Shown here: piece by piece, positions 1 through 64,000 of the stretch
Numbering within the stretch: position 1 is the stretch's first letter
Layout of the letters: each line of letters opens with the position of its first letter
IMG/VR virus record: IMGVR_UViG_3300009550_000009
DNA length: 64,000 nucleotides
Strand: one strand, 5' to 3'
Source of the DNA: a virus
Program-made: the position numbers and the translations under genes
Notes under the pieces: model-generated
Told to the model about the DNA's origin: nothing
The model's input: only the letters and a program-made list of their open reading frames with translations
Database searches by the model: none

Positions 1-439
1 CCTCAACTTAGGAGTTGCCAACCAACCAAACTACTTAAGAGATATACCAGTTCCCGGTGATAAAATTGATTTCGGTGATTTAAACATCCGATTTCTTGTT
101 GATGAAGACTTAAAAAATTTCATGGAAATACAAAAATGGTTAAGAGGTTTAGGTTTTCCAGAAGAAGTTCAAGAGTTTCGTGATTGGGAAGCAAGTGGAC
201 TTCAACCAAAAAGAAACTATGGTAAAGCACCTCAAGATATTTTTTCTGATGGAACTTTACAGATTTTAAGTAGTAACTTTATTCCTAAATTTAATGTTAC
301 ATTTAAAGATTTATGGCCCTATAGTTTGACTACTTTATCATTCGATGCTACAGATACAGATATTGAATACTTTACAGCTGATGCAAGTTTCAAATATACC
401 ATGTATAATATAACTGACTTATCCAATAATCCTTTATGA
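1..439 (+). CDS. gp3: T4 gp3-like tail tube terminator/tail completion protein (5'-truncated by window)
   Basis: Frame open from base 2 (LNLGVANQPNYLRDIPVPGDKIDFGDLNIRFLVDEDLKNF...). PGDK..F..L...F.VDE and ..P.SL..L.F motifs; usual position upstream of uvsY. Confidence 0.8.
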   Translation, partial: LNLGVANQPNYLRDIPVPGDKIDFGDLNIRFLVDEDLKNFMEIQKWLRGLGFPEEVQEFRDWEASGLQPKRNYGKAPQDIFSDGTLQILSSNFIPKFNVTFKDLWPYSLTTLSFDATDTDIEYFTADASFKYTMYNITDLSNNPL

Positions 440-870
440 TTGATCTTGAAAAACTTCAAGAGATGTGGGAAAAAGATGCAAAAATAGATCGTGATAATCT
501 ACATGATGAGTCACTTAATATCCCCTCTCTACATGCAAAGTATTTTGAATTATATAATACAATCTTTCTATTAAGAAAAAAAGCAGAACAACAAAGAAAA
601 AATATTCGTCATGAACGGTATGAGTATTTTAGTGGAAAAGCAGATCCAGATGTTTATATTGAGAATCCATTTCCAAAAAAGATAAGAGATAAAGATACCA
701 TGACTAAGTATCTTGATGCAGATGATAAATTATCAAATGCCACTTTGAAAATAGATTACTATGATACGATGTTAGTATATCTCGAAAGTATTCTTAAAGT
801 AATACAAAATAGGACATTTCAAATTAAAAATGCTATTGAGTTTATGAGATTTAATTCTGGACTGGGTTGA
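436..870 (+). CDS. uvsY: Recombination mediator UvsY
   Basis: W.KD..ID...L..ES..IP.LHAKY and R.FQIKNAIE motifs; gp3-uvsY-uvsW synteny. Confidence 0.92.
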   Translation: MIDLEKLQEMWEKDAKIDRDNLHDESLNIPSLHAKYFELYNTIFLLRKKAEQQRKNIRHERYEYFSGKADPDVYIENPFPKKIRDKDTMTKYLDADDKLSNATLKIDYYDTMLVYLESILKVIQNRTFQIKNAIEFMRFNSGLG

Positions 871-897
871 TAAATACATATAGATTTATGGATCTAT

Positions 898-2370
898 GTG
901 ACAGCAAACGTTGTTATATCTAAAGCAAATGAAGTATTCTTGACAGTAAATGCTGAACCACACATTCAGTATGAACTTCGAGATCATTTCACATTTCAGG
1001 TTGAGGGTGCAAAGTTTATGCCCCAATATCGTAATCGTAACTGGAATGGTGAAATACATTTATTTGATCTACGGTCAAAAAGAATTTACATTGGACTGTT
1101 AGATCGTATCATAGCATTTTGTAAGAAGCACGATTATAGTTATAGATTTGAAGATAATGAATATTACGGATCTCCTTTTGAGTTGAATGAAAGGATTTCA
1201 TATGAAGGTGTAAAAGATTATATACGTTCTATTTCAAGAATTTCCCCTCGTAATTATCAGATAGATGGAGTATATGATGCCTTACGGCACAATAGAAAAT
1301 TATTGATATCACCGACTGCTTCAGGTAAATCTTTGATGATTTACGCTCTTGTAAGATATTATGTAGATAAATCTCAAAAAATCCTGCTAGTTGTTCCAAC
1401 GACATCCCTTGTAGAACAGATGTATAAGGACTTTCAAGATTATGGTTGGGATTCTGATTCATATTGCCATCGAATATATTCTGGAAAAGAAAAGACCAAT
1501 GAATATCCAGTTACGATTACAACATGGCAATCTGTATATAAACTTGAAAGATCTTTCTTTGAAGATTATAGTGTAATCATTGGAGATGAAGCTCACCTGT
1601 TTAAGAGTAAGTCATTAATATCTATAATGACAAAACTACATCATGCAAAATATCGTTTTGGATTTACTGGAACTTTGGATGGAACACAAACACATAAGTG
1701 GGTATTGGAGGGATTATTTGGCCCATCATATAAAGTAACTAAAACAGATGAATTGATGAAGCAGGGTCATCTATCTCAATTGGATATACAATGTTTGGTT
1801 CTCAAACACTCTCCACAAAAATTTGAAACATATGAAGATGAACTGCAATATTTAATCACACATTCACAAAGAAATCGTTTCATAACTAACTTAGCACTTG
1901 ATCTAAAAGGTAATACTCTTATCTTATACAGTCGAGTAGAAACTCATGGTGCAGTTTTATATGAACTAATAAATACTAACAAGAGTGGTAATCGAAAAGT
2001 TTTCTTTGTTCATGGTGGTGTGGATGCTGAAGAAAGAGAACAGATTCGTGAAATCACTGAGAGAGAAGTGAATGCTATTATTGTTGCATCCTATGGAACA
2101 TTTTCAACAGGTATCAATATTAAAAACTTGCATAATATTGTTTTTGCCTCTCCGTCAAAGTCTCGAATTAGAAACCTCCAAAGCATTGGCAGAATACTCA
2201 GAAAAGGAACTAACAAAACCAAAGCTATTCTATACGATATCTCTGATGACTGCTCTAATAAATCTAGAAAAAACTACACATTAAATCACCTAATAGAAAG
2301 GATAAAAATTTATAACGAAGAAAACTTTAACTATGAAATAATTACAATTCAATTAAAAGGAGACAAATGA
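898..2370 (+). CDS. uvsW: SF2 DNA helicase UvsW
   Basis: SPTASGKS Walker A, DEAH, TGT, QSIGRILR motifs. Confidence 0.96.
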   Translation: MTANVVISKANEVFLTVNAEPHIQYELRDHFTFQVEGAKFMPQYRNRNWNGEIHLFDLRSKRIYIGLLDRIIAFCKKHDYSYRFEDNEYYGSPFELNERISYEGVKDYIRSISRISPRNYQIDGVYDALRHNRKLLISPTASGKSLMIYALVRYYVDKSQKILLVVPTTSLVEQMYKDFQDYGWDSDSYCHRIYSGKEKTNEYPVTITTWQSVYKLERSFFEDYSVIIGDEAHLFKSKSLISIMTKLHHAKYRFGFTGTLDGTQTHKWVLEGLFGPSYKVTKTDELMKQGHLSQLDIQCLVLKHSPQKFETYEDELQYLITHSQRNRFITNLALDLKGNTLILYSRVETHGAVLYELINTNKSGNRKVFFVHGGVDAEEREQIREITEREVNAIIVASYGTFSTGINIKNLHNIVFASPSKSRIRNLQSIGRILRKGTNKTKAILYDISDDCSNKSRKNYTLNHLIERIKIYNEENFNYEIITIQLKGDK

Positions 2371-2762
2371 TAGAAGATGATTTTTATGCTACAATAAAAT
2401 TTAAGAATGGTGAAGAAATATTTGCCAAGGTAGCAGCCTCTGAAGAAGAGGATAGAACTTTACTTATTGTATCTAATCCTATCGTTATTAATGAAGTTAA
2501 AGCAAAGAATGGAATTTCTGGATATCGAATTGAACCATGGTTAAAAACAACTAAAGAAGATATATTCATGATTAATTTAACAGATATCCTAACCTTATCA
2601 GAATCATATGATGTTGAAGTAATTTCAATGTATCAAAAATGGGTAAAGGATACAACAAGAGTAAAAAACAAAGAACCAAAACTAAGTCGTGAAATGGGAT
2701 ATATTGCTAGTGTAAGTGATGCAAAAGATATATTAGAAAAACTATTTAAACTTAAAGGCTAA
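2367..2762 (+). CDS. Conserved cyanophage hypothetical protein (Sm-like fold suspected)
   Basis: IKFKNGEEIFAKV...PW pattern; typical gene between uvsW and gp55. Confidence 0.6.
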   Translation: MIEDDFYATIKFKNGEEIFAKVAASEEEDRTLLIVSNPIVINEVKAKNGISGYRIEPWLKTTKEDIFMINLTDILTLSESYDVEVISMYQKWVKDTTRVKNKEPKLSREMGYIASVSDAKDILEKLFKLKG

Positions 2763-2787
2763 TTACCCTTGAACCTCTACAAAGGTT

Positions 2788-2816
2788 ATTCTACACATAT
2801 TTTAATACCTTGTCAA
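2788..2816 (-). promoter_or_regulatory. Sigma70-type promoter on the minus strand, antisense to the uvsW operon
   Basis: Reverse complement reads TTGACA-N17-TAGAAT. Confidence 0.65.
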
Positions 2817-2821
2817 GTAGC

Positions 2822-2850
2822 TTGCTATTTTGATACAAAAATGTTATAAT
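2822..2850 (+). promoter_or_regulatory. Sigma70-type promoter of gp55
   Basis: TTGCTA-N17-TATAAT with an extended -10 TG. Confidence 0.75.
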
Positions 2851-2875
2851 TTCTACATAATAATGATTAATAGTT

Positions 2876-8706: not shown

Positions 8707-10837
8707 GCATAAGCATGTAGAGACAGCGCAGTTCAATGTCCAGACTCGCGTATTGATTCTGCCTCTTTGGGAGAAAGCAAGTAATTCTGTATATGATATG
8801 TTGGTAGCGCATGAAGTTGGGCATGCGTTATTTACACCTAATGAAGATTATAGAGACAAAGTAAAAATACCTTTTGATTTCATAAATGTTTGCGAAGATG
8901 CTCGTATAGAGAAGTTGATGAAGCGTAAGTATCAGGGTCTTCCAAAAACATTTTATTATGGATATAGTGATCTTCATGATGATGATTTCTTTAATGTAGT
9001 AGATGTTGATTTTGAAAAATTTAATCTTGCTGATAAAGCAAATCTTCATTTCAAGATTGGTAATTTTATTGATATAACATTTACATCAAAAGAGAAGGAG
9101 ATTATTGACGAGATTGCTAACACAGAAACTTTTGATGAAGTTCTTGTAGTATCAGAGAAGTTATATAATTACTGCAAGGAGAATATGGAGGAGCAGAAGA
9201 AGCAAGTTCAAGATCTTGATCTTCATATGACTCCACAAACAGGACAACCAGAATCTCCAGAGTCATCTGATAGTAATGATGATGGTGAGTTAGAAGAAGT
9301 TGATCAGCAAGTCACTCAATCAGAAACTAAACCACAAAATGATTTTGGTTCAGATGAAGGTGGTGATATGGTTACACCAGAGGATGAGCAATCTGATTCT
9401 CCTTATGATCCTGATTCTTCAGAACCACAAGTTGCAACTGCAGAAGAGTTGGAGAAGAGTTTAAAAGATTTAATTGCAAGTCATGATGGTAGAGAGAATA
9501 TCTATGTTGAATTACCTGATGTTAAACTTGACAAAATTATTGAATCTAATAGTGATGTTCATGATGTTATCGAAAAACATTTTGCATGGGAGTGGAGTAG
9601 AATTAAAGCAGATAGAGAGAAGAATGGATATTCATGTGTTGCAAATCCATTTGAAGAAATTGATTCTGAATTTAATAATTTTAAAAAGAATGCAAGAAAG
9701 GAAGTTAATTATCTTGTTAAAGAGTTTGAGTGTAAGAAAGCTGCATCTGCATATGCTCGTGCTGCAGTAGCTCGCACTGGTGTATTGAATACATCAAAAC
9801 TTCATACTTATAAGTTCAATGAAGATCTTTTCAAAAAAGTTACCATATTACCTGATGGTAAAAATCATGGATTAGTATTCATTCTTGATTGGTCAGGATC
9901 AATGCAATATATCTTACAGGATACTTTAAAGCAACTTTATAATTTAATTTGGTTCTGCAGAAAAGTAAATATTCCCTTTGATGTATATGCTTTTTCAAAT
10001 GAATTCAAACGTGATGAGGGTTGGGGTTATTCTCATAATTATGATACTGTTGCCTATGAGAAGAGAGAGAACATAATGGCAATTGATAGTTGTTTTTCTC
10101 TTATGCATTTTTTCTCAAGTGATATCAAAGGAAAAGATCTTGAACAACAAATGCTTAACATATGGAGAGTTGCATCTTTATTCAGAGTATGGGGTCATGT
10201 AACTTATCCACGTAGACTTGCATTATCAGGAACGCCATTGAACGAATCATTAATCACTCTACGTCAAATTCTTCCAGAGTTCCAAAAGAAACATAACCTT
10301 GAAAAAGTTCAGTGTATTGTTCTTACTGATGGTGAAGCTGGGCATCTCTCATATCATGTGGAGGTTAAACGTTCTTGGGAAGATGAACCATACATGGGAA
10401 CACGCGGTATCGTTCCCGAAGCGACATTTATACGTGACCGTAAACTTGGTTGTAATTATAAAATTGGTTATAGATATACAGATTTTACAGATACTATTCT
10501 TCAAAATCTTCAAGATCTATTTCCAACAGTAAACTTTATCGGTATTCGAGTTATCGTTCCTAGAGCTGCATTATCTTTTGCAAGACATTTTACAACTGAT
10601 GAAACAAAGTTAAATGTGATTGAGAAAGATTGGAAAAAAACAAAAAGTTTCAATATTGTTGACTCTGCTTATGATGCATATTTTGTAATGTCATCAGTAA
10701 ATCTTAATGACAATTCAGATTTTCAAGTAAAGGAAGATGCTACCAAGTCGCAGATTAAATCAGCATTCGTTAGATCACTCAAGACAAAAAAACTAAATAA
10801 AAAAGTATTGGGCGAATTTATTTCTTTAGTGGTATGA
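8639..10837 (+). CDS. Metallopeptidase-like (HExxH) plus von Willebrand A domain protein (CobT-like partner of the AAA+ ATPase)
   Basis: AHEVGHA, NVCEDARIE, acidic linker, MIDAS elements DWSGSM, GTPL, LTDGE. The probable start is ATG 8639 (MAVQYEIK), not 8612. Confidence 0.88.
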   Translation: MAVQYEIKSQLAKLLATEDLIVEHKHVETAQFNVQTRVLILPLWEKASNSVYDMLVAHEVGHALFTPNEDYRDKVKIPFDFINVCEDARIEKLMKRKYQGLPKTFYYGYSDLHDDDFFNVVDVDFEKFNLADKANLHFKIGNFIDITFTSKEKEIIDEIANTETFDEVLVVSEKLYNYCKENMEEQKKQVQDLDLHMTPQTGQPESPESSDSNDDGELEEVDQQVTQSETKPQNDFGSDEGGDMVTPEDEQSDSPYDPDSSEPQVATAEELEKSLKDLIASHDGRENIYVELPDVKLDKIIESNSDVHDVIEKHFAWEWSRIKADREKNGYSCVANPFEEIDSEFNNFKKNARKEVNYLVKEFECKKAASAYARAAVARTGVLNTSKLHTYKFNEDLFKKVTILPDGKNHGLVFILDWSGSMQYILQDTLKQLYNLIWFCRKVNIPFDVYAFSNEFKRDEGWGYSHNYDTVAYEKRENIMAIDSCFSLMHFFSSDIKGKDLEQQMLNIWRVASLFRVWGHVTYPRRLALSGTPLNESLITLRQILPEFQKKHNLEKVQCIVLTDGEAGHLSYHVEVKRSWEDEPYMGTRGIVPEATFIRDRKLGCNYKIGYRYTDFTDTILQNLQDLFPTVNFIGIRVIVPRAALSFARHFTTDETKLNVIEKDWKKTKSFNIVDSAYDAYFVMSSVNLNDNSDFQVKEDATKSQIKSAFVRSLKTKKLNKKVLGEFISLVV

Positions 10838-11319
10838 TCACATTCAAAGAATTCATGCAAGAGAGCAGTCTCTCTCGTATAAAAAGTAAATCAGATAAGA
10901 GTGGTATAGCAACTCTTTCGGGTGATCGTGGTGACAAATCAAGGAAAGAAAATCAAGCAAGATCAAAACAATTGCAAAAAGATATTCGTGGTAAGTTTGG
11001 TAGAGGGCCAACTAAATTAAAGGGATCATATTTAGAAAATCCCGGTTCAAAAGATGAGAGAAAAGTAAAAGAGAAAAGTTATGCAATAGATCGTGGTAAG
11101 ATGGGTAAAAGAAAATTCAAGAAAGAAGTTAAGAAGTTGGGTAAGAAGTATGGGCAGGATTCCGTATTAACACAAACTAAAAAAACTGCTACACTACATA
11201 GAACAAGAAAAGGTGGATTAGATAAAAAAGGAGAAAATGTCGGTAGGTTTAAACCACAAGGTAAAAACCCATACGGTCAATCACAAGTTAAAGGTAAAAC
11301 TTTCGCATATGGAGATTAA
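10834..11319 (+). CDS. Basic hypothetical protein with a T4-like capsid-targeting N-terminus
   Basis: Begins MITFKEFMQE; Lys-rich; KKYGQDSVL motif; CTAAATA late-type promoter just upstream (~10793). Confidence 0.7.
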   Translation: MITFKEFMQESSLSRIKSKSDKSGIATLSGDRGDKSRKENQARSKQLQKDIRGKFGRGPTKLKGSYLENPGSKDERKVKEKSYAIDRGKMGKRKFKKEVKKLGKKYGQDSVLTQTKKTATLHRTRKGGLDKKGENVGRFKPQGKNPYGQSQVKGKTFAYGD

Positions 11320-48544: not shown

Positions 48545-48546
48545 TT

Positions 48547-51995: not shown

Positions 51996-52749
51996 TATGG
52001 AAGAGAATAGAGCACCTAATTATTGGCTTCGATATGATAAAAAAGATCATTACAGACTGAGGCATCAGTTTAAAAATTCTGAAAATGTAGAGGTAAACTG
52101 GTCACAATCAATGCAAGACATCTTTGTATTGAGTATGTTGGATGGTAAAAAGAATGGGTATTATGTTGAGATAGGTGCAGATATGCCTAGAATAATAAAC
52201 AACTCATACTTATTGGAAAAAAATTATGATTGGACTGGAGTTTCATTTGAATTGGATAGTGAAAAGGTTGAATACTTTAACACTATTAGAAAAAATAAAT
52301 GTGTATGCACTGATGCAACTACATTTGATTACAAAAAACTTTTTGAAGAAAGAAACTATCCAAAGCAAATTGACTATCTACAATTAGATATTGATCCATC
52401 AGAGGCGACACTTGCTGCTCTAGAAAATTTACCACTAGATGATTATAGATTTTCTGTTATCACATATGAAACTGAAGTTTACCGAGCAGGTATAGATGGA
52501 TATTATGATGAAATATGGCAAAAGAAATCTAGTGCAATTCTAAGTGATTATGGATATGAACTTGTTGTTAAAAATGTAGCAAATCAAGGAAATCCGTATG
52601 AAGATTGGTGGGTTGATCCAAAAGTCATAGATCGTGCTATAATAGAGAAGTTTAAAGACGATAGTGGATTCACTAAAGAATCTATAGAATGTGTTTTAAG
52701 TAATACAAATTTCACCGTAATGCCCATGTATACCCTCACTGAAATATAA
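51976..52749 (+). CDS. FkbM-family (Methyltransf_21-like) methyltransferase
   Basis: SQ..QD, YVEIGA, NS..LE...W.G, IDYLQLDID, EDWWV. Confidence 0.78.
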   Translation: MTTGKINMEENRAPNYWLRYDKKDHYRLRHQFKNSENVEVNWSQSMQDIFVLSMLDGKKNGYYVEIGADMPRIINNSYLLEKNYDWTGVSFELDSEKVEYFNTIRKNKCVCTDATTFDYKKLFEERNYPKQIDYLQLDIDPSEATLAALENLPLDDYRFSVITYETEVYRAGIDGYYDEIWQKKSSAILSDYGYELVVKNVANQGNPYEDWWVDPKVIDRAIIEKFKDDSGFTKESIECVLSNTNFTVMPMYTLTEI

Positions 52750-53612
52750 TGAAAAGAAAAGTATTTGATTCTATTATTTTCTTCAATGAACTAGAATTGT
52801 TAGAGATGCGTCTCAACATTTTAGGTGATGTTGTGGATCATTTTGTCATAACTGAATCTCCATTCACTGTGAGTGGAAATGAAAAACCCCTTTACTATGC
52901 AGAGAATAAAGATAGGTTTGCTAAGTTCAATGATAAAATTATACATCATGTCACAGAAGAGATACCGAATGATTACAATCATCTGTTAGAGAAGACTAAG
53001 TTTCATTGTGCATATAAAGAGAATGATCCTTATGGCACACCAATGATTGATCTCCCAGTCAGATATCAAAGAGCATTATTCAATCGTAATAATAGTGCAT
53101 TTGGTATTGAGAAAGGTAATCCAAAACCAGAAGATATAATCATCACAAGTGATGCTGATGAGATTCTTGATCCACGAGTTCTAGAAAATTTAGATTGGTT
53201 TGATGGTTACAATCATTATGTCGCAACAGGCCCTGCATTTTATTTCAAACTTAATTTTAAATATCAAGATGACTGGATGGGGCCAAGAATATGTAATTGG
53301 TTCAAACTAAAAGACACAACAGTAGATCAACTCAGACAAGATCATAAGAACGCATATCGTATCGAAGATACTGCATGGCACTTTAGTTTCCTTGGTGATG
53401 CAGAAAACTTTAAACTTAAGTTGGCATCATATGAACATACAGAAAATAATAGTGCAAATGTTCTTGCAAATGCAGAGGAAAAGGTGGAGAAGGGATTAGA
53501 CCCACTAGGTAGAGGACAAATGTATAAAGCAGTTGCGATTGATGATACATACCCAGAATACATTGTAAACAATCAAGACAAGTATTCTAATTTAATTAAA
53601 CCATGGAAGTAA
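52749..53612 (+). CDS. GT17-like GlcNAc transferase
   Basis: D...F.NEL.LL..RL, FV..ES..T.SG..KP, SDADEI, WHFSF.G. Confidence 0.85.
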   Translation: MKRKVFDSIIFFNELELLEMRLNILGDVVDHFVITESPFTVSGNEKPLYYAENKDRFAKFNDKIIHHVTEEIPNDYNHLLEKTKFHCAYKENDPYGTPMIDLPVRYQRALFNRNNSAFGIEKGNPKPEDIIITSDADEILDPRVLENLDWFDGYNHYVATGPAFYFKLNFKYQDDWMGPRICNWFKLKDTTVDQLRQDHKNAYRIEDTAWHFSFLGDAENFKLKLASYEHTENNSANVLANAEEKVEKGLDPLGRGQMYKAVAIDDTYPEYIVNNQDKYSNLIKPWK

Positions 53613-54538
53613 TCGAAGGAGTTGCTCTCTCTGAATTATGTGATTATTCATTTGGAGATCAATCAGGACAATGGAGTGGCATCTATACATCTTTTATGAA
53701 GGATGCCAATCTTATTAATACTGAATTTGTAAGTAAAGTTTTTGAAATACAAAAAGAGAGAAATTATATGACTCTCTTCATTGATAACATTCGTTTATAC
53801 AAGAGAGATATTAAAGAGGTAAAACCAGAGGATAAACCATATGTAAATGAGTTGATGGATCGTAATAATCTATTGAAACTATGTGGTAATTTTTCAAACA
53901 TGAAATTTATTATCTTCACTAATCTTGAAGATACTCCGATAGATGAACACATACACACCATGATACCTTCAAATGTATTATGCATATCTGCTGTCAATGC
54001 AATATCGCATGGTAATAGAGTTATTCCTGCACCATACGGTGTTCAAAGAAGGATGATCTCGCAAGATAATCGTATTGGCGATCTTGAAGTTTATATGGAA
54101 TGTGTTCCTGAAAATCCATCAGGTTTACTATATGTAAGTCATAATGAAAATTCTAATCCAGAGAGAGTTGGTATAAAAGATTTATTTCGTGATAAGTCAT
54201 GGGCACAGGTTAATGAAAAAAGAGCACCTTACTCTGTATTCTTATACAATCTTGCTAATTCAAAGTTTATGATATGTCCTAAAGGTAATGCAATTGACTG
54301 TCATCGTAATTGGGAAGTTATCTATATGAGAAGAGTTCCTGTAATGATTAGACATCCATATCTAGAAACATTATTTGAAAATTATCCTGTTCTATTTGTG
54401 GATAAATATAGCGATGTCACTGAAGAGTTATTGCTTGCAAATAATGATTTATTTAAGCGAGCACAAACAATGGATTTGTCAAATTTGACTCTACCAAAAT
54501 TCTTTGATAATATTGTTGATAGGTATGTGAATAGATGA
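53603..54538 (+). CDS. Exostosin/GT47-like protein
   Basis: KF.ICPKGN.IDCHR.WE...VP. Confidence 0.7.
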   Translation: MEVIEGVALSELCDYSFGDQSGQWSGIYTSFMKDANLINTEFVSKVFEIQKERNYMTLFIDNIRLYKRDIKEVKPEDKPYVNELMDRNNLLKLCGNFSNMKFIIFTNLEDTPIDEHIHTMIPSNVLCISAVNAISHGNRVIPAPYGVQRRMISQDNRIGDLEVYMECVPENPSGLLYVSHNENSNPERVGIKDLFRDKSWAQVNEKRAPYSVFLYNLANSKFMICPKGNAIDCHRNWEVIYMRRVPVMIRHPYLETLFENYPVLFVDKYSDVTEELLLANNDLFKRAQTMDLSNLTLPKFFDNIVDRYVNR

Positions 54539-55122
54539 ATACATTCATTGAAAAAGCACTTAATGGGACAATGGATTCTGATCGACACTTGGTGTCGATT
54601 TTTGCAATGGCACTTGCCTCAAGAGGTAAAGTTTTTATTGAACTTGGTGTCAGAGAAGGACATACAACAAAACCATTATATGAGGCAGCAAAACTCACTG
54701 GTGGTCATTTGTGGTCTGTTGATATAAATGATCCTACAAAATTTAAACCTAACAATGGTAATTACACCTTTACTAAACAAGATAGTATCAAGTTCTTAGA
54801 GGAGTGGCCTAGAGATAAAAAGATTGATGTTGCGTATGTGGATGATTGGCATTCATATGAACATGTCAAAAGACAATTAGAATTGTTAGATGAATTGGTT
54901 GGCCCCAGCAGCATTATCCTTTTACATGATTTGATGTATGGTAATACTGAACCTTTTTACCACTCAGATCTAGCACATCATGAGGGTCAATGGGCAAGTG
55001 GTGGGCCATATCGCGCAGTAGCAGAATTAAATCCACAGTTTTGGGAATGGTCAACATTGCCATGGAACAATGGATTGACTATACTGCGTAAAAAGTATAG
55101 CAACAAGTATCATAGGAGTTAG
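54535..55122 (+). CDS. Class I SAM-dependent methyltransferase (Methyltransf_24-like)
   Basis: ELGVREG.T, SVD, DS..FL, D..YVD..H.Y, LHD. Confidence 0.82.
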   Translation: MNTFIEKALNGTMDSDRHLVSIFAMALASRGKVFIELGVREGHTTKPLYEAAKLTGGHLWSVDINDPTKFKPNNGNYTFTKQDSIKFLEEWPRDKKIDVAYVDDWHSYEHVKRQLELLDELVGPSSIILLHDLMYGNTEPFYHSDLAHHEGQWASGGPYRAVAELNPQFWEWSTLPWNNGLTILRKKYSNKYHRS

Positions 55123-55123
55123 T

Positions 55124-56047
55124 ATGTTAGCAACAAGCATTCATGAGCATGCAGGATTGGGAAATCAAATATGGAGATACGTTTGTTGTCGTGTATTTGC
55201 AGAAAATCATGGTTATGATTTTGGTGTCAGTCACCCTGGCTGGAGAGGTAAGTTTTTAAATGTTGATTGGGGTAAAGTTGTCCCTAACTTTGAAGAAGAC
55301 TCTGATTATCATATCAATTCTGGATACTTGTATTATAAAGAAGAATCTATACATCATGCATCAGCACCCGGAGAAATTGGTGATCCAGATCCTAGATTTA
55401 AAGAATTAGAACCTAACACATATATCAATGGCACATTTCAAAAGATGTCATATATTGAAGAGCATCGAGATAAGATAAGAGATTGGTTGACGTATGATAG
55501 TAAATTTAATATTACTGATTATTCTGATGAAAATATATGTGTCATTCAACTAAGAGGTGGTGATTATACAACAGGGCATTCAATGTTACCTCCAGAGTAT
55601 TATCATCAGGCGATGCATCATATGAGACAAAACAACCCAGACGTTGAGTTTGTAATTGTCACAGATGATCCGAAGACTGCAGGAAGAATGATACCTAATA
55701 CACCTATAGTAGGATCGGCAACTGCAGAAGAAAAAGATCCCGATCAAAAGTTTATTAGTTGGTATGAATATACTGGAGGGCCTGTGTATATGGACTATAG
55801 TATACTAAACAACGCAAAGTATGCTATAATATCATCATCAACATTCGCTTTCTGGCCTGTGTGGTTGAATACAAAATTAGAAAACGTGATAGCACCTAAG
55901 TATTGGTTTGATTGGAATCGATCTGATGGGTGGTGGAGACCTAAAGATGGGATTGTAAATGATCCTGCATGGTTGTGGATGGATAAGTTTGGTGGATTGT
56001 ATGAAAGTGAAACTTGTATTAATTTAGCAAAAAAATACTATGCTTAA
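55124..56047 (+). CDS. GT11-family glycosyltransferase
   Basis: GLGNQ, G.FQ, QLRGGDY, VTDDP, SSTFAFW, IAPK.W. Confidence 0.82.
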   Translation: MLATSIHEHAGLGNQIWRYVCCRVFAENHGYDFGVSHPGWRGKFLNVDWGKVVPNFEEDSDYHINSGYLYYKEESIHHASAPGEIGDPDPRFKELEPNTYINGTFQKMSYIEEHRDKIRDWLTYDSKFNITDYSDENICVIQLRGGDYTTGHSMLPPEYYHQAMHHMRQNNPDVEFVIVTDDPKTAGRMIPNTPIVGSATAEEKDPDQKFISWYEYTGGPVYMDYSILNNAKYAIISSSTFAFWPVWLNTKLENVIAPKYWFDWNRSDGWWRPKDGIVNDPAWLWMDKFGGLYESETCINLAKKYYA

Positions 56048-56714
56048 TCTTGATAATGTAACGTTATTTTGCATTTCATCTGACAATACAGATGGTGCGA
56101 TCACGGCTTTGCAATATAGTATGAGGGGTATTAATTATGGTGCTGTTAAACTCATCACACATAAGAAACCCGATAACTTACCACAGGGAATTGAATTCTC
56201 TGAATGCTATGAAATTACTTCAATACACGAATACAATTACTATTGCATCTATAACCTTACCAGACACATTGATACCGACTATTGTTTACTGGTTCAACCT
56301 GATGGATTTGTTATAAATCCTGACAAGTGGGATAATGAATTTTTTGATTATGATTACATAGGTGCACCATGGGAGAAGGTAGATCATTCCTATCTTGATC
56401 CATGGGGTAAACCACATCGTGTGGGTAACGGAGGATTTTCTTTCCGTAGCAAAAAACTATTAGATATACCGAAGAGAGCACATATACAATTCGATGTAAA
56501 CTGGGGAGATTTCTATAAACATTTTGGATATGGTAACACAGCAGAAGATGGAAATATCTGTGTGCACAATCGACATATATATGAACAACTAGGATGTAAG
56601 TTTGCACCGGTTTCTGTTGCTGCTAAGTTCTCTCATGAGAAACAGTTACCAGAGACACAGGGTATTACACCGTTTGGATTTCATTATCATTTACCACCCG
56701 GAACTACATTATGA
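56040..56714 (+). CDS. DUF5672 glycosyltransferase-like protein
   Basis: Q.DGF, YDYIGAPW, VGNGGFS.RS, ED, A..FS.E, FGFH. Confidence 0.8.
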   Translation: MLNLDNVTLFCISSDNTDGAITALQYSMRGINYGAVKLITHKKPDNLPQGIEFSECYEITSIHEYNYYCIYNLTRHIDTDYCLLVQPDGFVINPDKWDNEFFDYDYIGAPWEKVDHSYLDPWGKPHRVGNGGFSFRSKKLLDIPKRAHIQFDVNWGDFYKHFGYGNTAEDGNICVHNRHIYEQLGCKFAPVSVAAKFSHEKQLPETQGITPFGFHYHLPPGTTL

Positions 56715-57526
56715 TAGGTCACAATCACTTAGGAAAGAACGGAAGATTTGGTAATCAGATGTTCCAGTATGCAGCAACCAGAGGTATCGCAGCAAAACGT
56801 GGATACGATTGGTGCATACCAGATGGCCCTAAGACAGATGATGAGTTTGAAGATGAAGAGAATCAACACAAACTTTTTATGGCATTTAAAATGGGTGGTG
56901 TCAAAACGATTAACATGCATCCTGCTCCTTATAAAGAGGAGGGTAGTTTTACTTTTGATCAAGACTTGTTTGACAATTGTGAGGATAATGTAAATCTATA
57001 TGGATACTTTCAATCAGAAAAATATTTTAAACACATAGAAGATGAGATAAGAAAAGACTTTGAGTGGAGAGATGACGTAAAGAAGTTATGTAAGGATATG
57101 ATTGATGGTCTTCATGTTGATCAACTTATATCTCTACATGTTCGTAGAACAGATCATTTAGTCAAACCAACTTACCATAATGTTCTCCCTTTAAGTTATT
57201 ACAAGGAAGCACTTTCTAAGTTACCTTTGACTCATGATAGTTGCACAATACCAGTCCTTATATTTTCTGATGATCCTGATTGGTGTAAAGAACAAAAGTT
57301 GTTCTCATCTGATAGATTTCTTGTATCAGAAAGTGGGGATAATATTACAGACATGTGCTTGATGAGTATGTGTGATTATCACATCATGGCAAACTCTACT
57401 TTCTCATGGTGGGGATCGTGGTTGTCAAACAGTAAACGTATCATTGGCCCTAAACTTTGGTTTGGGCCTGATGGTCAAGATCCTAGAGATGTCTATGTAG
57501 ATAGATGGGAGTATCTTGATGTTTGA
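56711..57526 (+). CDS. GT11-family alpha-1,2-fucosyltransferase-like
   Basis: GRFGNQMFQYA, GYFQSEKYF, HVRRTD, FSDDP.W, NSTFSWWG. Confidence 0.9.
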   Translation: MIGHNHLGKNGRFGNQMFQYAATRGIAAKRGYDWCIPDGPKTDDEFEDEENQHKLFMAFKMGGVKTINMHPAPYKEEGSFTFDQDLFDNCEDNVNLYGYFQSEKYFKHIEDEIRKDFEWRDDVKKLCKDMIDGLHVDQLISLHVRRTDHLVKPTYHNVLPLSYYKEALSKLPLTHDSCTIPVLIFSDDPDWCKEQKLFSSDRFLVSESGDNITDMCLMSMCDYHIMANSTFSWWGSWLSNSKRIIGPKLWFGPDGQDPRDVYVDRWEYLDV

Positions 57527-58268
57527 GTTTTCAATTGCGATCCCTGCACATGATCGTGGTGAAAACGGCCCTAAATGGATGAGAGAGTTACTTGACTCTC
57601 TTGAAAGACAAACCTTTCAAGAATTTGAGGTTGTTGTCTCTGATCAGAGCAAGAATGATGATATTATGAATGTATGTAAGGAATATGATTTCCAATTTAC
57701 ATACATTAAATATCAAGGAGATGTCCCTTGTGAGAATATAAACATAGCATTGAATCACTGTGAAGGTAGAATTATTAAACCGATGTTTTCTGATGATATC
57801 TTTCTCAAAGATTGTGCACTTGAAAGAATACAGAGAGAATATAACAAGTTAGATTGCAAATGGGCATTCAGTGGATTTTCAAACTGGGATGGTAAAAATA
57901 AACATGACAAAAAAACACCAGTATGGGCAGACAAAACTCTTGAAGGTAGAAACTTATTGAGTAGTCCATCAGTTGTATCTTTTTTGAATGAATGTAAAGA
58001 ACAATTTGATGCAAATCTCAAACTCTTGCTAGATGTAGATTTTTATCATAGAATGAGAATGAGGAACGGTATGCCACATATCATACTTGGTTCTCTGGTT
58101 GCAAATCGAGAACATGATGATAGAATAAGCAGTGATGCAACATCTAATTATGATTGTGTGGTCGAGCATCCAGAGGGTAACTGGCTTATGAACAGTAGAG
58201 AACTACAATATATTCATGAGAAGTATCCTGAATTTATTAAAAAACAAATTTATCCTGATGAGATCTGA
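57519..58268 (+). CDS. GT2-family glycosyltransferase
   Basis: SIAIP, L.SL..Q....EVVVSD.S, SDD, PS, D.DF..R. Confidence 0.82.
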   Translation: MFEFSIAIPAHDRGENGPKWMRELLDSLERQTFQEFEVVVSDQSKNDDIMNVCKEYDFQFTYIKYQGDVPCENINIALNHCEGRIIKPMFSDDIFLKDCALERIQREYNKLDCKWAFSGFSNWDGKNKHDKKTPVWADKTLEGRNLLSSPSVVSFLNECKEQFDANLKLLLDVDFYHRMRMRNGMPHIILGSLVANREHDDRISSDATSNYDCVVEHPEGNWLMNSRELQYIHEKYPEFIKKQIYPDEI

Positions 58269-59079
58269 TTTATCAAAAGCAACATTTATTATTCCGATTA
58301 GGATTGAATCTCCTGATAGGATGCGTAATGTAATTACTACTACTGCATTTCTACTAGAGAATTTTAAAACAAATATTATTATTCAAGAAGTTGACAAAGA
58401 ATCTGTATTTGAAAAAGAAGCGTTACCAATCTTAGAGGATATAGTTGATGTTGATATATGGGAAAACTTTAACTTTATTTTCAAACAAAGTAATGAACCA
58501 TTATTTCATCGTCAAAGAGTTTTAAATGAAATGATTATGGAGGCAGATACTGAAATAGTTGTGAATTATGACTGCGATGTTATCTTACCCCGTAAATCAT
58601 ATGAACTCGCGTATCAGGGGATTGTGGACGGTCTATATGACGTTGTTTATCCATACGCTCAAGGTGATTATCAGAAGCGTGTAGCAGCAACAGACATTAC
58701 AGTATCAAAGTTTTTAGAGACAGGTGACTACGAGTTTCTAAATGCTGTATCTGATATATCAACATCTGATTTTGGATGGGCTCAATTCTTTCGTAGGCAA
58801 GTTTACATTGATGGTGGTATGGAAAATGAGAATTTCAAAGCATATGCCCCAGAAGATAAGGAAAGATTTTACAGATTCACAACTCTTGGTTATAATGTAG
58901 GTAGAATTAATGATTACGTTTATCACTTGGAACATTCAAGAGGAGAAAACTCATGGTTTAGTAATCCACATATGCAGGACAATCAGCAGGAGTGGATTAA
59001 ATTATCGCAAATGAGTAAAGAGAAATTACTTCAATATTATTCTGAACAGGAGTATCTAAAAAAATATGCTCGCCTTTAA
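58258..59079 (+). CDS. GT2/GT7-like (galactosyltransferase C-terminal-like) glycosyltransferase
   Basis: FIIP.R, N.DCD (DxD), GG.NE.F...ED.E...R, YHLEH. Confidence 0.78.
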   Translation: MRSDLSKATFIIPIRIESPDRMRNVITTTAFLLENFKTNIIIQEVDKESVFEKEALPILEDIVDVDIWENFNFIFKQSNEPLFHRQRVLNEMIMEADTEIVVNYDCDVILPRKSYELAYQGIVDGLYDVVYPYAQGDYQKRVAATDITVSKFLETGDYEFLNAVSDISTSDFGWAQFFRRQVYIDGGMENENFKAYAPEDKERFYRFTTLGYNVGRINDYVYHLEHSRGENSWFSNPHMQDNQQEWIKLSQMSKEKLLQYYSEQEYLKKYARL

Positions 59080-59917
59080 TAATATCGGTAGTCTTGGAAG
59101 ACTAGGTAATCAAATGTTTGAGTATGCTGCACTTCGTGGCATCTCTGCTAAACATGGATACGAATGGATGATACCACCACCAGAAAACAAAGGTATTGAA
59201 AACTATAGTTTGCATGAGTGTTTTAAATTATCATCTGATCGTAAAGAAGGTATTATGGATCCTTGTCATTATGCACAAGAACCTCACTTTCATTTTTGCG
59301 AAGAACTATATGAAAGATGTCCTGATGGTGTGAGTCTTCATGGATTCTTTCAATCATGGAGATACTTTCATAATGTGGAAGATGAACTTAGAAAAGATTA
59401 TACTTTTCATGAGGGTATCTCAGAACCATGTAAGGAGATGATAGAAGAACTTGGTGATAAAGAACCAATCATGTTGCATGTAAGAAGAGGTGATCCGAAT
59501 CTTACAGATCCTCGTGGTTTCAAATGGTCATACACACAGTGTGGAGATCAGCATCCCGTCCAACCCATAGAATATTATGAGAAAGCACTATCACATTTTG
59601 ATTCAAAACAACCTGTAATTGTGTTCTCCGATTCAACTGAATGGGTAAAAGAGCAAGAGATCTTTAAACCTGATAGATTTATGGTTTCTGAACCAGAGGA
59701 TAAATATGCTGACGGTTCATTTACACCGTATGCTGACTTGTGCTTGATGAGTCTATGTTCACATGCTATAATAGCAAATAGTTCTATGAGTTGGTGGGGT
59801 GCTTGGTTGATCTCCAATCCCGACAAGCAAGTTATCGCACCAAAGATGTGGTTTGGCCCTGCATATGCAGACAAAGATACGACAGACCTTTATTACCCTA
59901 ATTGGATTGTATTATGA
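59066..59917 (+). CDS. GT11-family alpha-1,2-fucosyltransferase-like
   Basis: GRLGNQMF.YA, G.FQS..YF, HVRRGD, FSD, NSS.SWWGA. Confidence 0.9.
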   Translation: MLAFNNIGSLGRLGNQMFEYAALRGISAKHGYEWMIPPPENKGIENYSLHECFKLSSDRKEGIMDPCHYAQEPHFHFCEELYERCPDGVSLHGFFQSWRYFHNVEDELRKDYTFHEGISEPCKEMIEELGDKEPIMLHVRRGDPNLTDPRGFKWSYTQCGDQHPVQPIEYYEKALSHFDSKQPVIVFSDSTEWVKEQEIFKPDRFMVSEPEDKYADGSFTPYADLCLMSLCSHAIIANSSMSWWGAWLISNPDKQVIAPKMWFGPAYADKDTTDLYYPNWIVL

Positions 59918-60687
59918 CTAGAATAGAAAGTTATGAGGATCTGACAGATAAAATTGTTGGATGGTTAAAAGATTATTACTTTGATAATAATATAAAAGCA
60001 TTTGTAGTAGGAGTGTCAGGTGGAATAGATTCTGCCGTGGTATCTACTCTTTGTGCTAGAACAGGATTACCCACATACGTTGTGTGTATGCCTCTAGAAT
60101 CTAAGTTTGAAAACACAAGGCTCTCTGATGCACACTCAAAGGCATTGGTAGAAAAATATGATAATGTTAAGAGAGTAGAAGTAGAATTGTTTAGTGCTTA
60201 TGATAGTCTAATCAAATCAATCGAGTGGTGGTCAGAGGCACAACATTTTGATAAAAAGGAATTCACATCAAGTGAACTTGCAAATGCAAATACTAAATCA
60301 CGCATTCGTATGGTAACTCTATATCAGATAGCAGGATCTGTTGGTGGTATAGTGGTTGGAACAGGTAACAAAGTAGAGGATTATGGAGTCGGTTTTTATA
60401 CTAAGTATGGTGACGGTGGTGTTGATATCGCCCCTATTGCTGACCTTTATAAAACGGAAGTCTGGGAACTAGGAGAATACCTAGAGGTAGATGAAAGGAT
60501 TTGTGAAGCACCACCAACTGATGGTCTATGGAAAGATGCTCGTAGTGACGAGGATCAACTAGGTGCATCATATGCAGAACTAGAGGAAGCAATGGAGACA
60601 GGCACAGGCCCTGCTGTTGAAGTTCTCAAGAAATTCAACACACAAAACAAACATAAAATGGAACCCATCCCTACATTTAAACTATGA
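59914..60687 (+). CDS. nadE: NH3-dependent NAD+ synthetase
   Basis: GVSGGIDSA PP-loop, N.KSR.RM, GTGNK.E, F.TKYGDG, KTEV, PT.GLW, DE..LG..Y. Confidence 0.92.
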   Translation: MTRIESYEDLTDKIVGWLKDYYFDNNIKAFVVGVSGGIDSAVVSTLCARTGLPTYVVCMPLESKFENTRLSDAHSKALVEKYDNVKRVEVELFSAYDSLIKSIEWWSEAQHFDKKEFTSSELANANTKSRIRMVTLYQIAGSVGGIVVGTGNKVEDYGVGFYTKYGDGGVDIAPIADLYKTEVWELGEYLEVDERICEAPPTDGLWKDARSDEDQLGASYAELEEAMETGTGPAVEVLKKFNTQNKHKMEPIPTFKL

Positions 60688-61787
60688 AGATAGGATTAAT
60701 CGGAGCAGGTAGATTAGGTATCTGCTTAGCTCTTTTAATTGAAAGAGCAGGATTTGATGTTATAGCATCAGATGTTCGTGAAGATTATATTGAAAATCTT
60801 AAACACAAAGTTATATTCACAAATGAACCACAAGTTCAAGATTATCTTTCTCAATCTGAAAACATTGAATTTACCACAGATAATCAGAAGGTAATTGATG
60901 ATTCAGATATTATCTTTACTTTGGTTCAGACACCATCACTTGAAGATGGTAGTTATGATGTAAGTGCTGTATGGAAAGTTGTTCAGAATCTTCAAAACTC
61001 TAACACAAAAGGGAAGTCTTTCGTGGTTGGTTGCACAACAAACCCCGGTGATTGTGATGAGTTTCAAAAAATGCTTGACATGGACGTATACTACAATCCA
61101 GAGTTCATAGCACAAGGATCTATCATCAAAGATTTGCAGCATGCAGATATGGTTTTATTGGGTGGAAATGGAAAACACCTTGAAGCATTGCAAGAACTAT
61201 ATTACTTAATTCAATATAGTTTTAAACCTGCACATGTGCATACTATGAGCACAAAGGCTGCAGAAATTACAAAGATTGCTGTTAATTGTTTCTTAACTAC
61301 TAAGATCAGTTATGCAAATATGCTTGGTGAAGTTCTTTCATTATCAGGATTAGATGATGAAATTAAAACTGTATTAAGTGCGATAGGAACTGATAGTCGA
61401 GTGGGCACAAAGTATCTTAACTTTGGTTTTGGATTTGGTGGGCCTTGTTTTCCAAGGGACAATCGAGCATTTGCTGCACATGCACAAAGCGTGGGGGTTA
61501 AACATAACATTGGTTATACAACTGACGCATTTAATGAAGAACATGCTCAGTTTATCAAAGAGTTTTTCATACGTAAGAACGAAAATCGATTACCCTTTGC
61601 ATTCAAATATTTGACATACAAACCGGGTATCGATATACTTACAGAGAGTCAACAATATCGTTTATGCCTTGATCTTTTGAATGAAGGATGCAAAGTATAT
61701 TGTATGGACGATGCGATCATTCATTTATGTGATGATCGAATTATATTTGAAGACCCTAAAGAGGATGTCTATTGGATCAATCTGTAA
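60684..61787 (+). CDS. UDP-glucose 6-dehydrogenase family protein
   Basis: GAGRLG, V.TP, YNPEF, K...N.FL, GFGGPCFPRD. Confidence 0.88.
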   Translation: MKIGLIGAGRLGICLALLIERAGFDVIASDVREDYIENLKHKVIFTNEPQVQDYLSQSENIEFTTDNQKVIDDSDIIFTLVQTPSLEDGSYDVSAVWKVVQNLQNSNTKGKSFVVGCTTNPGDCDEFQKMLDMDVYYNPEFIAQGSIIKDLQHADMVLLGGNGKHLEALQELYYLIQYSFKPAHVHTMSTKAAEITKIAVNCFLTTKISYANMLGEVLSLSGLDDEIKTVLSAIGTDSRVGTKYLNFGFGFGGPCFPRDNRAFAAHAQSVGVKHNIGYTTDAFNEEHAQFIKEFFIRKNENRLPFAFKYLTYKPGIDILTESQQYRLCLDLLNEGCKVYCMDDAIIHLCDDRIIFEDPKEDVYWINL

Positions 61788-62575
61788 CTGATAAGAATAA
61801 GTCTGCTTATAAGTTAAAAAACTTTGGGCCTGTATATTGTATTAATCTTGATGGGCAACCAGATAGATGGCAATTTATGGAGTCACAATTTAAGTTTTGG
61901 GAGATCGATAATTATACTCGTATCTCTGCTTATGATGGACGTGAAGATGACTTAAGCGATATTATCAAGGGTAAATATCCTGAGAATATGTCATCTGGTG
62001 AGGTAGGATGCACAACATCACACCTGAGAGCGATGAAGCACTATCTAGAAACAAGTGATTCACCATATGCAATCATGATGGAAGATGATTGTAGTTTAGA
62101 TCTTGTTAAGTTTTGGAATTTTAAATGGAGTGATATCTACGCACACTTCCCTTATGATTATGATGTAGTTCAACTTGCTATCATATGCACTGGTGATATA
62201 CATGTAAGATTGCACAAGAGATTTGTTAATGACTTCTCCACTGCATGCTACGTAATCAGTCGCTATCATGCAGAAAAGTTGGTTCGTTTACATTGTCGTG
62301 GTGATAAGTATAAACTTGATCAAGGTGTGAAGCCACGTCCTGTTGCAGATGATTTAATTTACAACTCAGGAAATGCATTTGCAATTCCACTTTTGGTTTA
62401 CAAGTTTGAATTAGGATCAAGCATACATCCAGTTCATGTGGACGTATATCATAAAAATAATTATGAAGCACAAGTTAATTTTTGGACACAGAATGGTGCA
62501 AATATTGACATTGCTGACTATATGAACTATGATCCATACCTTGGTCGTGTTACAGAAAGTAGTGCGGGTAAGTGA
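61772..62575 (+). CDS. GT25-family glycosyltransferase
   Basis: YCINL....DR, R.SA.DG, GE.GC..SH, MEDD, ST.CY.I. Confidence 0.85.
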   Translation: MDQSVTDKNKSAYKLKNFGPVYCINLDGQPDRWQFMESQFKFWEIDNYTRISAYDGREDDLSDIIKGKYPENMSSGEVGCTTSHLRAMKHYLETSDSPYAIMMEDDCSLDLVKFWNFKWSDIYAHFPYDYDVVQLAIICTGDIHVRLHKRFVNDFSTACYVISRYHAEKLVRLHCRGDKYKLDQGVKPRPVADDLIYNSGNAFAIPLLVYKFELGSSIHPVHVDVYHKNNYEAQVNFWTQNGANIDIADYMNYDPYLGRVTESSAGK

Positions 62576-63165: not shown

Positions 63166-63194
63166 GACCTCTACATAACGTAGGGGTCTTTTTT
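63166..63194 (+). terminator. Rho-independent terminator
   Basis: GACCTCTAC-ATAAC-GTAGGGGTC followed by T6. Confidence 0.85.
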
Positions 63195-63196
63195 AT

Positions 63197-63388: not shown

Positions 63389-63415
63389 TATTTTTGTAAT
63401 ATAAGTTAATCTAAT

Positions 63416-63437
63416 GGGGGTCATAAGACCTCCTTTT
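63416..63437 (+). terminator. Rho-independent terminator
   Basis: GGGGGTC-ATAA-GACCTCC followed by TTTT. Confidence 0.7.
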
Positions 63438-63490
63438 CTATGTTCGGGATCCCGAATGTAAAGAATCTTGTCAAAACTTAACATTTGCTA

Positions 63491-63517
63491 TATAATATTG
63501 TTACATAAATTTACAAA
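63491..63517 (+). promoter_or_regulatory. hli promoter -10 with HLR1 (RpaB) direct repeat
   Basis: TATAAT at 63491, then GTTACATA-AA-TTTACAAA at 63500-63517. Confidence 0.75.
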
Positions 63518-63523
63518 GTCCAA

Positions 63524-63721
63524 ATGACAACAATTACTGAAAGTGGTGGTCGCCAAAATATGTATCCTACAGATACTCGTCCATATATTGATGAGTCAAT
63601 CTCATATGAGGGATATCCACAGAATGCAGAAAAAGTAAATGGTCGTTGGGCTATGATCGGTTTCGTGGCATTAATTGGTGCATACGTAACTACTGGTCAA
63701 ATCATCCCCGGAGTTTTTTAA
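63524..63721 (+). CDS. hli: High-light inducible protein
   Basis: AEKVNGRWAMIGF...TGQIIPG.F. Confidence 0.95.
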   Translation: MTTITESGGRQNMYPTDTRPYIDESISYEGYPQNAEKVNGRWAMIGFVALIGAYVTTGQIIPGVF

Positions 63722-63834
63722 TGAACTACTGGAAGAACGCAGAGTTGATCAATGGTCGTCTCGCAATGCTCGGTTTAGTAATCGGCACAATCAACTACGG
63801 TCTATTCGGATGGATAGCACCCGGTTTCTTTTAA
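63721..63834 (+). CDS. hli: High-light inducible protein
   Basis: MNYWKNAELINGRLAMLG...PGFF; start overlaps the previous stop. Confidence 0.9.
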   Translation: MNYWKNAELINGRLAMLGLVIGTINYGLFGWIAPGFF

Positions 63835-63885
63835 AGAATGAAATTCAATTCACAATTCACAATTAATCACAAAGAGGAAAAACTC

Positions 63886-63993
63886 ATGACTCCAGAAGCA
63901 GAAAGATTTAACGGTTGGGCAGCAATGCTTGGTTTCGTAGCAGCAGTCGGTGCATACGCAACAACAGGAAACATCATCCCCGGTATATTCTAA
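63886..63993 (+). CDS. hli: High-light inducible protein (missing from the ORF track)
   Basis: MTPEAERFNGWAAMLGFVAAVGAYATTGNIIPGIF; GAGG RBS. Confidence 0.93.
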   Translation: MTPEAERFNGWAAMLGFVAAVGAYATTGNIIPGIF

Positions 63994-64000
63994 TGACAAA

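Follow-up and report, generated by a model that had tools for sequence, protein, structure and literature searches.

Purge of GGWCC, CCWGG, GTAC and further palindromes in a T4-like marine cyanomyovirus lineage, and an RGCC flank that spares CCWGG

Introduction

The stretch of DNA analysed here comprises 64,000 nt (positions 1–64000, one strand) of the IMG/VR virus record IMGVR_UViG_3300009550_000009 (from here: the window). It is a portion of the genome of a T4-like marine cyanomyovirus, with a G+C content of 34.5% and with all sizeable open reading frames (ORFs) on the + strand. Genes for T4-type replication and recombination functions (UvsW, gp55, gp46/47, clamp, clamp loader, DNA polymerase, UvsX, gp41, primase and NrdAB) are found together with the cyanophage genes for CobS, bilin reductase, Hsp20, MazG and hli. 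Among named phages, Prochlorococcus and Synechococcus myoviruses come closest, at ~75% nucleotide identity. The subject of this work is the loss of several short words from the entire stretch 1–64000, in which GGWCC, GTAC, TTCGAA, ACTAGT and CACGTG are absent and CCWGG occurs three times (W stands for A or T, S for G or C, R for A or G, Y for C or T and N for any base).

The host is probably a high-light Prochlorococcus. This assignment was made because the hli gene resembles those of high-light Prochlorococcus, with 85–90% identity, and this gene is the sole pointer to the host.

Classic cases of restriction-site avoidance include Bacillus phages and coliphages. In the literature on restriction-site avoidance of cyanophages, we found no paper on the pattern described here. 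A first-pass annotation of the window had proposed strong selection against two specific host restriction or methylation systems, with long-read base-calling errors at methylated sites as the alternative. Here we compare the word counts with a codon-preserving null model, follow the purged words through related phages and likely hosts, and weigh the possible causes.

Materials and methods

Expected word counts were obtained by permuting synonymous codons inside each of the 92 + strand ORFs of the window in 300 rounds. The analysis was extended with contig G001, an independent IMG/VR contig of 72.7 kb that overlaps the initial 20.6 kb of the window at 98–99% identity and continues 50.8 kb upstream. 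Window and upstream part together give 114.8 kb of an expected genome of ~190 kb. Ten cultured cyanomyoviruses, represented by 100 kb each (loci L327–L376), served as the comparison set, and 285 Prochlorococcus species genomes were considered as potential hosts.

Results

Word counts and codon phase

GGWCC does not occur in the window (GGACC 0, GGTCC 0), compared to 38.3 expected copies and a minimum of 29 in the shuffled sequences (z −10.9). CCAGG is lacking as well, while CCTGG is present at 20253, 44445 and 55235, so that three CCWGG sites stand against 31.7 expected ones (shuffle minimum 21, z −7.5). Both values lie far from expectation, and the recount matched exactly what the first-pass annotation had read by eye, namely no GGWCC and about three CCTGG near these positions. 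Its statement that GATC, GGCC and CCGG are common was likewise borne out, with 287, 52 and 49 copies, respectively. The corresponding S forms are over-represented, about three-fold in case of GGSCC (38 vs 13.0) and about two-fold in case of CCSGG (29 vs 13.0). The largest purge concerns GTAC, with 0 vs 123 expected instances. AGCT reaches 41 of 170 expected copies, and AAGCTT, GCSGC and GAATTC are also below expectation.

The purge continues through the 50.8 kb upstream. Over 114.8 kb the observed and shuffled counts are 0 vs 69.6 for GGWCC, 8 vs 76.1 for CCWGG and 0 vs 268.7 for GTAC; among the hexanucleotides they are 0 vs 28.3 for TTCGAA, 0 vs 19.9 for ACTAGT and 0 vs 11 for CACGTG. The words with a count of zero besides GGWCC are all palindromes. 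Of the SSWSS words, which form ten classes, the palindromes CCWGG and GGWCC alone are depleted and the other eight are at expectation.

The claim that every Gly-Pro pair is written GGC-CCN or GGG-CCN holds for 35 of 35 pairs (20 GGC and 15 GGG), although these two codons make up only 13.8% of all Gly codons. Pro-Gly pairs, described as almost always CCC-GGN or CCG-GGN, use an S-ending Pro codon in 26 of 28 instances (CCC 20, CCG 6, CCT 2), compared to 16% for CCC and CCG among all Pro codons. When tabulated by codon phase, the excess of GGSCC (35 vs 6.9) and CCSGG (26 vs 7.5) appears only where the middle of the word falls on a third codon position, which supports selection. The two non-synonymous phases also have no, or almost no, GGWCC and CCWGG (~9 and ~11 expected), and the S forms are not in excess there.

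These numbers reflect a forced choice. Any GGN-CCN pair must contain either GGWCC or GGCC, and any CCN-GGN pair either CCWGG or CCGG; a phage that keeps Gly-Pro and Pro-Gly dipeptides can therefore be rid of only one of the two words in either case. The otherwise rare codons GGC, GGG, CCC and CCG and the surplus of GGSCC and CCSGG are seen at these pairs because a codon ending in S is the only synonymous escape.

One feature of the composition is of another kind. AGCC is much scarcer in the window (10 vs 65) than its reverse complement GGCT (46 vs 69), and relatives including L002 are alike in this respect. Since the asymmetry is strand-specific, a double-strand nuclease cannot account for it.

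The flank of the surviving CCWGG sites

All three CCWGG sites of the window share a flank. The first (20251–20257) reads GGCCTGG within an Arg-Pro-Gly stretch (AGG CCT GGA), where the preceding RG makes it overlap an RGCC word. The other two (44445–44451 and 55235–55241) both read CCTGGCT (reverse complement AGCCAGG) and both encode Pro-Gly (CCT GGC). Over the 115 kb, eight of eight survivors are RGCCWGG on one strand, compared to 6.7% of the shuffled sites, and this class is not depleted (8 vs ~5 expected). The split of CCNGG is complete: sites lacking the RG flank are 69 S and 0 W, whereas those possessing it are 0 S and 8 W. In the sister lineage G287, seven of seven surviving CCWGG sites are RGCCWGG, compared to 3 of 161 in non-avoiding relatives. 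GGWCC and GTAC are unable to overlap RGCY, and neither has a survivor.

The best reading of this flank rule, judged from the sequence, is that the phage DNA may be modified at the C of RGCY, which would spare RGCCWGG. The CCWGG enzyme would be blocked at RGCCWGG because the modified C of RGCY coincides with the outer C of CCWGG. Such a modification would also cover GGCC, a word tolerated by the window lineage. In single-molecule real-time (SMRT) data of marine Myoviridae-like genomes, RGCY was the most common modified motif, with nine viral genomes modified at it; CCNGG, GGWCC and CCWGG were modified as well, in varying combinations, and none of the modified motifs was paired with a methyltransferase (Hiraoka et al. 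2022, PMC8919816). We found no C5, N4/N6 or D12 methyltransferase family in the scanned ORFs of the window or elsewhere in the phage DNA examined. In particular, PF00145, PF01555 and PF02086 had no match in contig G001, and PF00145 and PF02086 had none in G287 and G290, each of these contigs being a genome fragment.

Distribution among related and cultured phages

At least seven further contigs of IMG/VR, 96–100% identical, are in the same purged state; they are independent and stem from different samples. A sister lineage, G287, has ~78% nucleotide identity to the window, is syntenic over 56 kb with proteins 65–96% identical, and has the purge of GGWCC and CCWGG in common with it. Where Gly-Pro and Pro-Gly pairs are conserved, the W form is found in relatives and the S form in the window. 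GTAC sites of relatives align to GTTC, ATAC, GCAC or GTAT in the window, mostly as synonymous changes. The purge is thus real selection acting through synonymous change.

The purged words are nested in their distribution. Full purging of GTAC is restricted to the clade at ≥96% identity, which lacks GTAC, GGWCC and CCWGG. The clade at 93–95% identity and G287 have lost GGWCC and CCWGG and keep GTAC at about half of expectation; including G290, the GTAC values of these relatives are 0.27–0.56 of expectation. The purge of TTCGAA and ACTAGT is shared between the window and G287. In the remaining relatives GGWCC alone is purged, or nothing, as in P-TIM68 (GGWCC 19/20, CCWGG 32/29). The purge of GGWCC is therefore the widest, with that of CCWGG found only within it, and an S regime at CCNGG was never seen without an S regime at GGNCC. 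We had considered a single agent for both W words; it is ruled out, since other lineages avoid GGWCC alone and CCWGG avoidance is nested within. The earlier attribution to selection against two specific systems thus stands with regard to selection but not to the number, as at least five to six words were purged at different phylogenetic depths. Phages with 91–92% identity in one conserved protein were seen in opposite purge states, and the purged words differ between phages with 92–95% identity in a conserved protein.

Among the ten cultured cyanomyoviruses, CCGG is absent from six, including S-SSM7, P-HM2, P-TIM40, S-TIM4 and Syn30 (47–96 expected), and GGCC is at 0.04–0.36 of expectation in eight. 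Most of them lack CCSGG and GGSCC, have GGCC at 0.04–0.2 of expectation and are normal in GGWCC and CCWGG; CCSGG and GGSCC are missing from the eight with low GGCC. Further words are purged in some, such as GCGC (0 in P-HM2 and P-TIM40), TCGA (2/30 in P-TIM68) and GTAC. Site avoidance is a general habit of the family, and the window lineage is distinct by its word set, not by avoidance itself; it stands on the opposite side of the forced trade-off from most cultured cyanomyoviruses.

Candidate modification and anti-restriction genes

A gene on the + strand at 17975–19102, between two clamp-loader genes, encodes a DruA/DUF4338-like protein of 375 aa (Pfam DruA, E 4.9e-8; phrog_19197). Its AlphaFold2 (AF2) model has a pLDDT (predicted local distance difference test) value of 91.7 and consists of a GNAT core with additional helical parts at both termini. 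The best Foldseek matches were all GNAT proteins. In the VIA comparison, Mom of phage Mu (8bv8) ranked first (Z 9.8, root-mean-square deviation 3.8, 173 of 202 residues, 13% identity); 61 chains reached Z ≥8, those listed were all GNAT proteins, and Mom lay within 1 Z of many others. No sequence match was obtained in the PDB. The predicted model clearly has the GNAT fold, and a homologue in S-SCSM2R is annotated as 'methylcarbamoylase mom'. We propose, as an unproven hypothesis based on this model, that the protein may write a DNA modification that depends on sequence context. Twelve genomes, not independent of one another, were compared: of the seven with the GNAT gene, five show relaxed RGCY or spare sites flanked by RGCC, and of the five lacking it, none does. 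RGCY words are at 0.05–0.35 of expectation in these five genomes without the gene.

Upstream, also on the + strand, the ORF at 10834–11319 encodes a very Lys/Arg-rich protein of 161 aa starting with MITFKEFMQE, which matches the S-adenosylmethionine lyase family (PF23780, E 2.5e-18, 66.7 bits at a cut-off of 28). It has homologues in G287 (75% identity) and G290 (92%) and no sequence match in the PDB. Judged by this match, the protein may counteract restriction or methylation.

Candidate nuclease genes

Two further ORFs on the + strand were considered as nucleases against whose activity the phage might purge its own sites. The conserved late-block ORF at 31389–32840 (483 aa) had been taken into account as a possible PD-(D/E)xK nuclease, which was not supported. 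It is a widespread syntenic late gene from a family of >636 members, and a 49%-identical homologue occurs in L276, where no avoidance exists (GGWCC 10/17, CCWGG 21/21, GTAC 42/47). Neither Foldseek nor VIA matched its AF2 model to a nuclease, and these searches left the fold itself undecided. The ORF at 20727–22031 (434 aa) has a weak match to GmrSD_N (DUF262) of 29.8 bits, under the cut-off of 33.2. It is inserted between a phosphomannomutase-like gene and hsp20 and is absent from G287. A role as a nuclease of the phage's own was not supported; its sole IMG/VR relative, L086, has normal GTAC (30 vs 25).

Restriction and methylation genes of likely hosts

C5 methyltransferase genes are present in 74 of the 285 Prochlorococcus species genomes, and beside them lie nucleases of the LlaMI/MvaI-BcnI and HaeII families and Vsr. 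Nucleases of the EcoRII-C family were found in 3 of the 285 genomes, and two of these (G163 and G185) adjoin a C5 methyltransferase. For the pairs of methyltransferase and Vsr, the best match was the E. coli Dcm subfamily model with 347.6 bits, below its cut-off of 710. Genes of the EcoRII/Dcm type are thus present in the likely host genus, with a specificity for CCWGG that cannot be read from their sequence. A scan with NCBIfam of the unnamed ORFs beside Prochlorococcus methyltransferases gave no family match. The Prochlorococcus loci L174–L179 (G049, G009, G012, G164, G225 and G139) represent a conserved island with Vsr and a Dcm-like C5 methyltransferase; the L174 island adjoins an AIPR abortive-infection protein, and no restriction nuclease could be recognised.

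Prochlorococcus genomes, with or without C5-methyltransferase systems, are not depleted in GGWCC, CCWGG, GTAC or AGCT, which excludes a mutational or compositional bias shared by phage and host. A hint of depletion in the Prochlorococcus genome G091 (CCWGG 8 vs 27 over 40 kb) was gone at 180 kb (116 vs 132).

Other genes of the window

A block of 16 genes on the + strand (47411–62575, 15 kb) encodes sugar-nucleotide epimerases and dehydratases, UDP-glucose dehydrogenase, glycosyltransferases of families 2, 11, 17 and 25, NAD synthase, and Methyltransf_24/FkbM methyltransferases of the small-molecule type. The block is similar to a cluster of S-SSM7, and its gene content differs from that of G287. 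Directly after nrdB, at 44417–44863 (+ strand), lies a gene for a SegE-type GIY-YIG homing endonuclease, which is also present in G287 (87% identity).

Discussion

The purge described here is of a known kind; new are the reversed choice of words, the trade-off imposed by the dipeptides and the clean exemption by an RGCY flank. It resembles restriction-site avoidance in virulent double-stranded DNA phages (Rusinov et al. 2018, PMC6286503) in the strong under-representation of short palindromic type II words, in their synonymous removal and in a word set that varies between related phages. It differs in being absolute for five words over 115 kb, in mirroring the family norm and in exempting one word within a fixed flank. 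The text of that survey mentions neither cyanophages nor the words purged here.

We consider it probable that the lineage escapes several host type II restriction enzymes and that a modification in the RGCY context spares RGCCWGG; the attribution to host enzymes in the first-pass annotation is plausible. Site-specific double-strand nucleases met during infection would select against every copy of several short palindromes. The likely agents would be host type II enzymes, AvaII/SinI-like for GGWCC, EcoRII/MvaI-like for CCWGG and RsaI-like for GTAC, with further nucleases cutting TTCGAA, ACTAGT and CACGTG. The phage would delete the sites by synonymous recoding, which at Gly-Pro and Pro-Gly pairs means G or C at the third position and yields GGCC and CCGG, words purged by most cultured cyanomyoviruses. 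CCWGG would be retained only as RGCCWGG, since the modified C of RGCY would stop the CCWGG enzyme, and the Mom-like GNAT protein encoded at 17975–19102 may write this modification.

Several observations weigh against this explanation. No cognate enzyme was found, and from sequence neither GGWCC, GTAC nor even CCWGG specificity can be assigned to any Prochlorococcus enzyme. The SinI family (PF09570) was detected in 0 of the 285 Prochlorococcus genomes, which proves little as the control genomes were silent too. The host call hangs on hli, a gene swapped among cyanophages, and ~40% of the genome lies outside the examined DNA, where a nuclease or methyltransferase could be encoded. AGCT (0.29 of expectation) and AGCC are still depleted, which full protection of RGCY would make needless. 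The association with the GNAT gene is loose and was observed in a small, phylogenetically dependent sample: S-SM2 and Sf-CH5 have the gene yet purge RGCY as well as sites flanked by RGCC, CCWGG is not purged in L001 and G290 although both have the gene, and no cultured Prochlorococcus phage carries it.

Two readings place the origin of the pattern outside restriction, in sequencing or in mutational and translational biases. If base-callers read methylated CCWGG and GGWCC as CCSGG and GGSCC, the purge would exist in the assembly alone. Nanopore reads are known to carry systematic errors at Dcm sites, and the surplus of GGSCC and CCSGG roughly matches the number of missing W sites. However, miscalls are blind to the reading frame while the S excess is confined to third codon positions, and the ~20 W sites expected in the two other codon phases are gone without S replacement. 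GTAC was replaced by varied synonymous words, and eight RGCCWGG sites were called normally. Because the same purge is found in at least seven independent contigs, in G001 and in the diverged contigs G287 and G288, we attribute it to selection and regard the artefact suggested in the first-pass annotation as highly improbable. Equally remote is a bias such as deamination of 5-methylcytosine at CCWGG or a codon-pair preference in place of selection on sites. The stronger depletion of AGCC than of GGCT indicates that some strand-specific bias at the coding level exists in the family. But only two palindromic SSWSS words are hit, in all three codon phases, with eight sister words at expectation; deamination would yield CTWGG and not CCSGG; and close relatives, although alike in proteins and codon usage, take the opposite codons.

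Among explanations that involve nucleases, it appears unlikely that the phage or a passenger mobile element encodes enzymes for GGWCC, CCWGG and GTAC against host or rival DNA and has purged its own sites. T4-like phages degrade host DNA, and these cyanophages are not known to have hydroxymethylcytosine to mark self. The purge is absolute (0/70 GGWCC, 0/269 GTAC), as if the enzyme were always present, and room for such genes would exist in the ~40% outside the examined DNA and in the unassigned ORFs 20727–22031 and 37513–38802, which are missing from or barely matched in G287. Against it, neither of the candidates 31389–32840 and 20727–22031 holds up, five or six specificities would demand as many phage nucleases, and the graded, partial depletion of GTAC in relatives is more in line with a host pressure that comes and goes than with a resident enzyme; the exemption of RGCCWGG would still require a modification. 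Less likely again is that the phage avoids methylation, such that CCWGG and GGWCC methylated by one host in progeny DNA are cut by type IV nucleases of the next. Pairs of a Dcm-like methyltransferase and Vsr without an obvious restriction partner in at least 10 Prochlorococcus genomes, some of them beside AIPR, would fit this scenario, as would the 74 genomes with C5 methyltransferases, and the S-adenosylmethionine lyase-like gene suits a phage trying to stay unmethylated. Yet the scenario accounts for the exemption by the RGCC flank only if this flank keeps the methyltransferase from acting, the two-step story would have to be repeated for each of GTAC, TTCGAA and ACTAGT, and no host type IV system stands behind this scenario, none having been searched for.

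Returning to the escape from host enzymes, the proposed RGCY modification can be compared with known systems. The marine Myoviridae-like viruses with published methylomes (PMC8919816) share habitat, phage type, the words RGCY, CCWGG and GGWCC and the lack of a matching methyltransferase. They keep and modify these words, however, whereas the window lineage has deleted GGWCC and CCWGG and its RGCY modification is proposed from sequence.

The CviJI system of chloroviruses has the specificity RG^CY. The same set of four RGCY words is depleted across cyanomyoviruses and defines the protective flank in the window lineage, but the likeness is in the word only; the phage DNA examined yielded neither a nuclease nor a methyltransferase of the CviJI kind. 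With regard to the writer, Mom is a phage-encoded, GNAT-fold DNA adenine N6-carbamoylmethyl transferase that acts independently of S-adenosylmethionine and, as a sequence-context modifier, blocks restriction. The GNAT core of the protein at 17975–19102 matches Mom best. The two differ by an identity of only 13%, a Z score tied with dozens of ordinary GNATs, the extra helical parts and the presumed target, which would be a cytosine in RGCY instead of an adenine.

It is a doubtful proposition that the DruA/DUF4338-like protein writes a methyl-independent, GNAT-made cytosine modification at RGCY in marine T4-like cyanophages. If true, this mark would be the writer-less, 'm4C-like' RGCY signal of ocean myovirus genomes. 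With GGCC and sites overlapped by RGCC under its protection, the window lineage would have been free to switch from purging CCGG and GGCC to purging CCWGG and GGWCC. Such a switch would open hosts closed to its relatives, while the S-adenosylmethionine lyase-like protein would disable methyl-dependent host systems.

The exemption of RGCCWGG is a testable, sequence-level prediction of a DNA modification, in a motif already seen without a writer in marine viral methylomes. The forced choice at Gly-Pro and Pro-Gly pairs implies that a host carrying both kinds of enzyme, for GGWCC and GGCC or for CCWGG and CCGG, would corner the phage. On the reading we favour, the purged words would be a record of the nucleases faced by a wild, uncultured ocean phage lineage, and their shifts between closely similar phages would point to a fast turnover of defence and counter-defence in Earth's most abundant photosynthetic cells.

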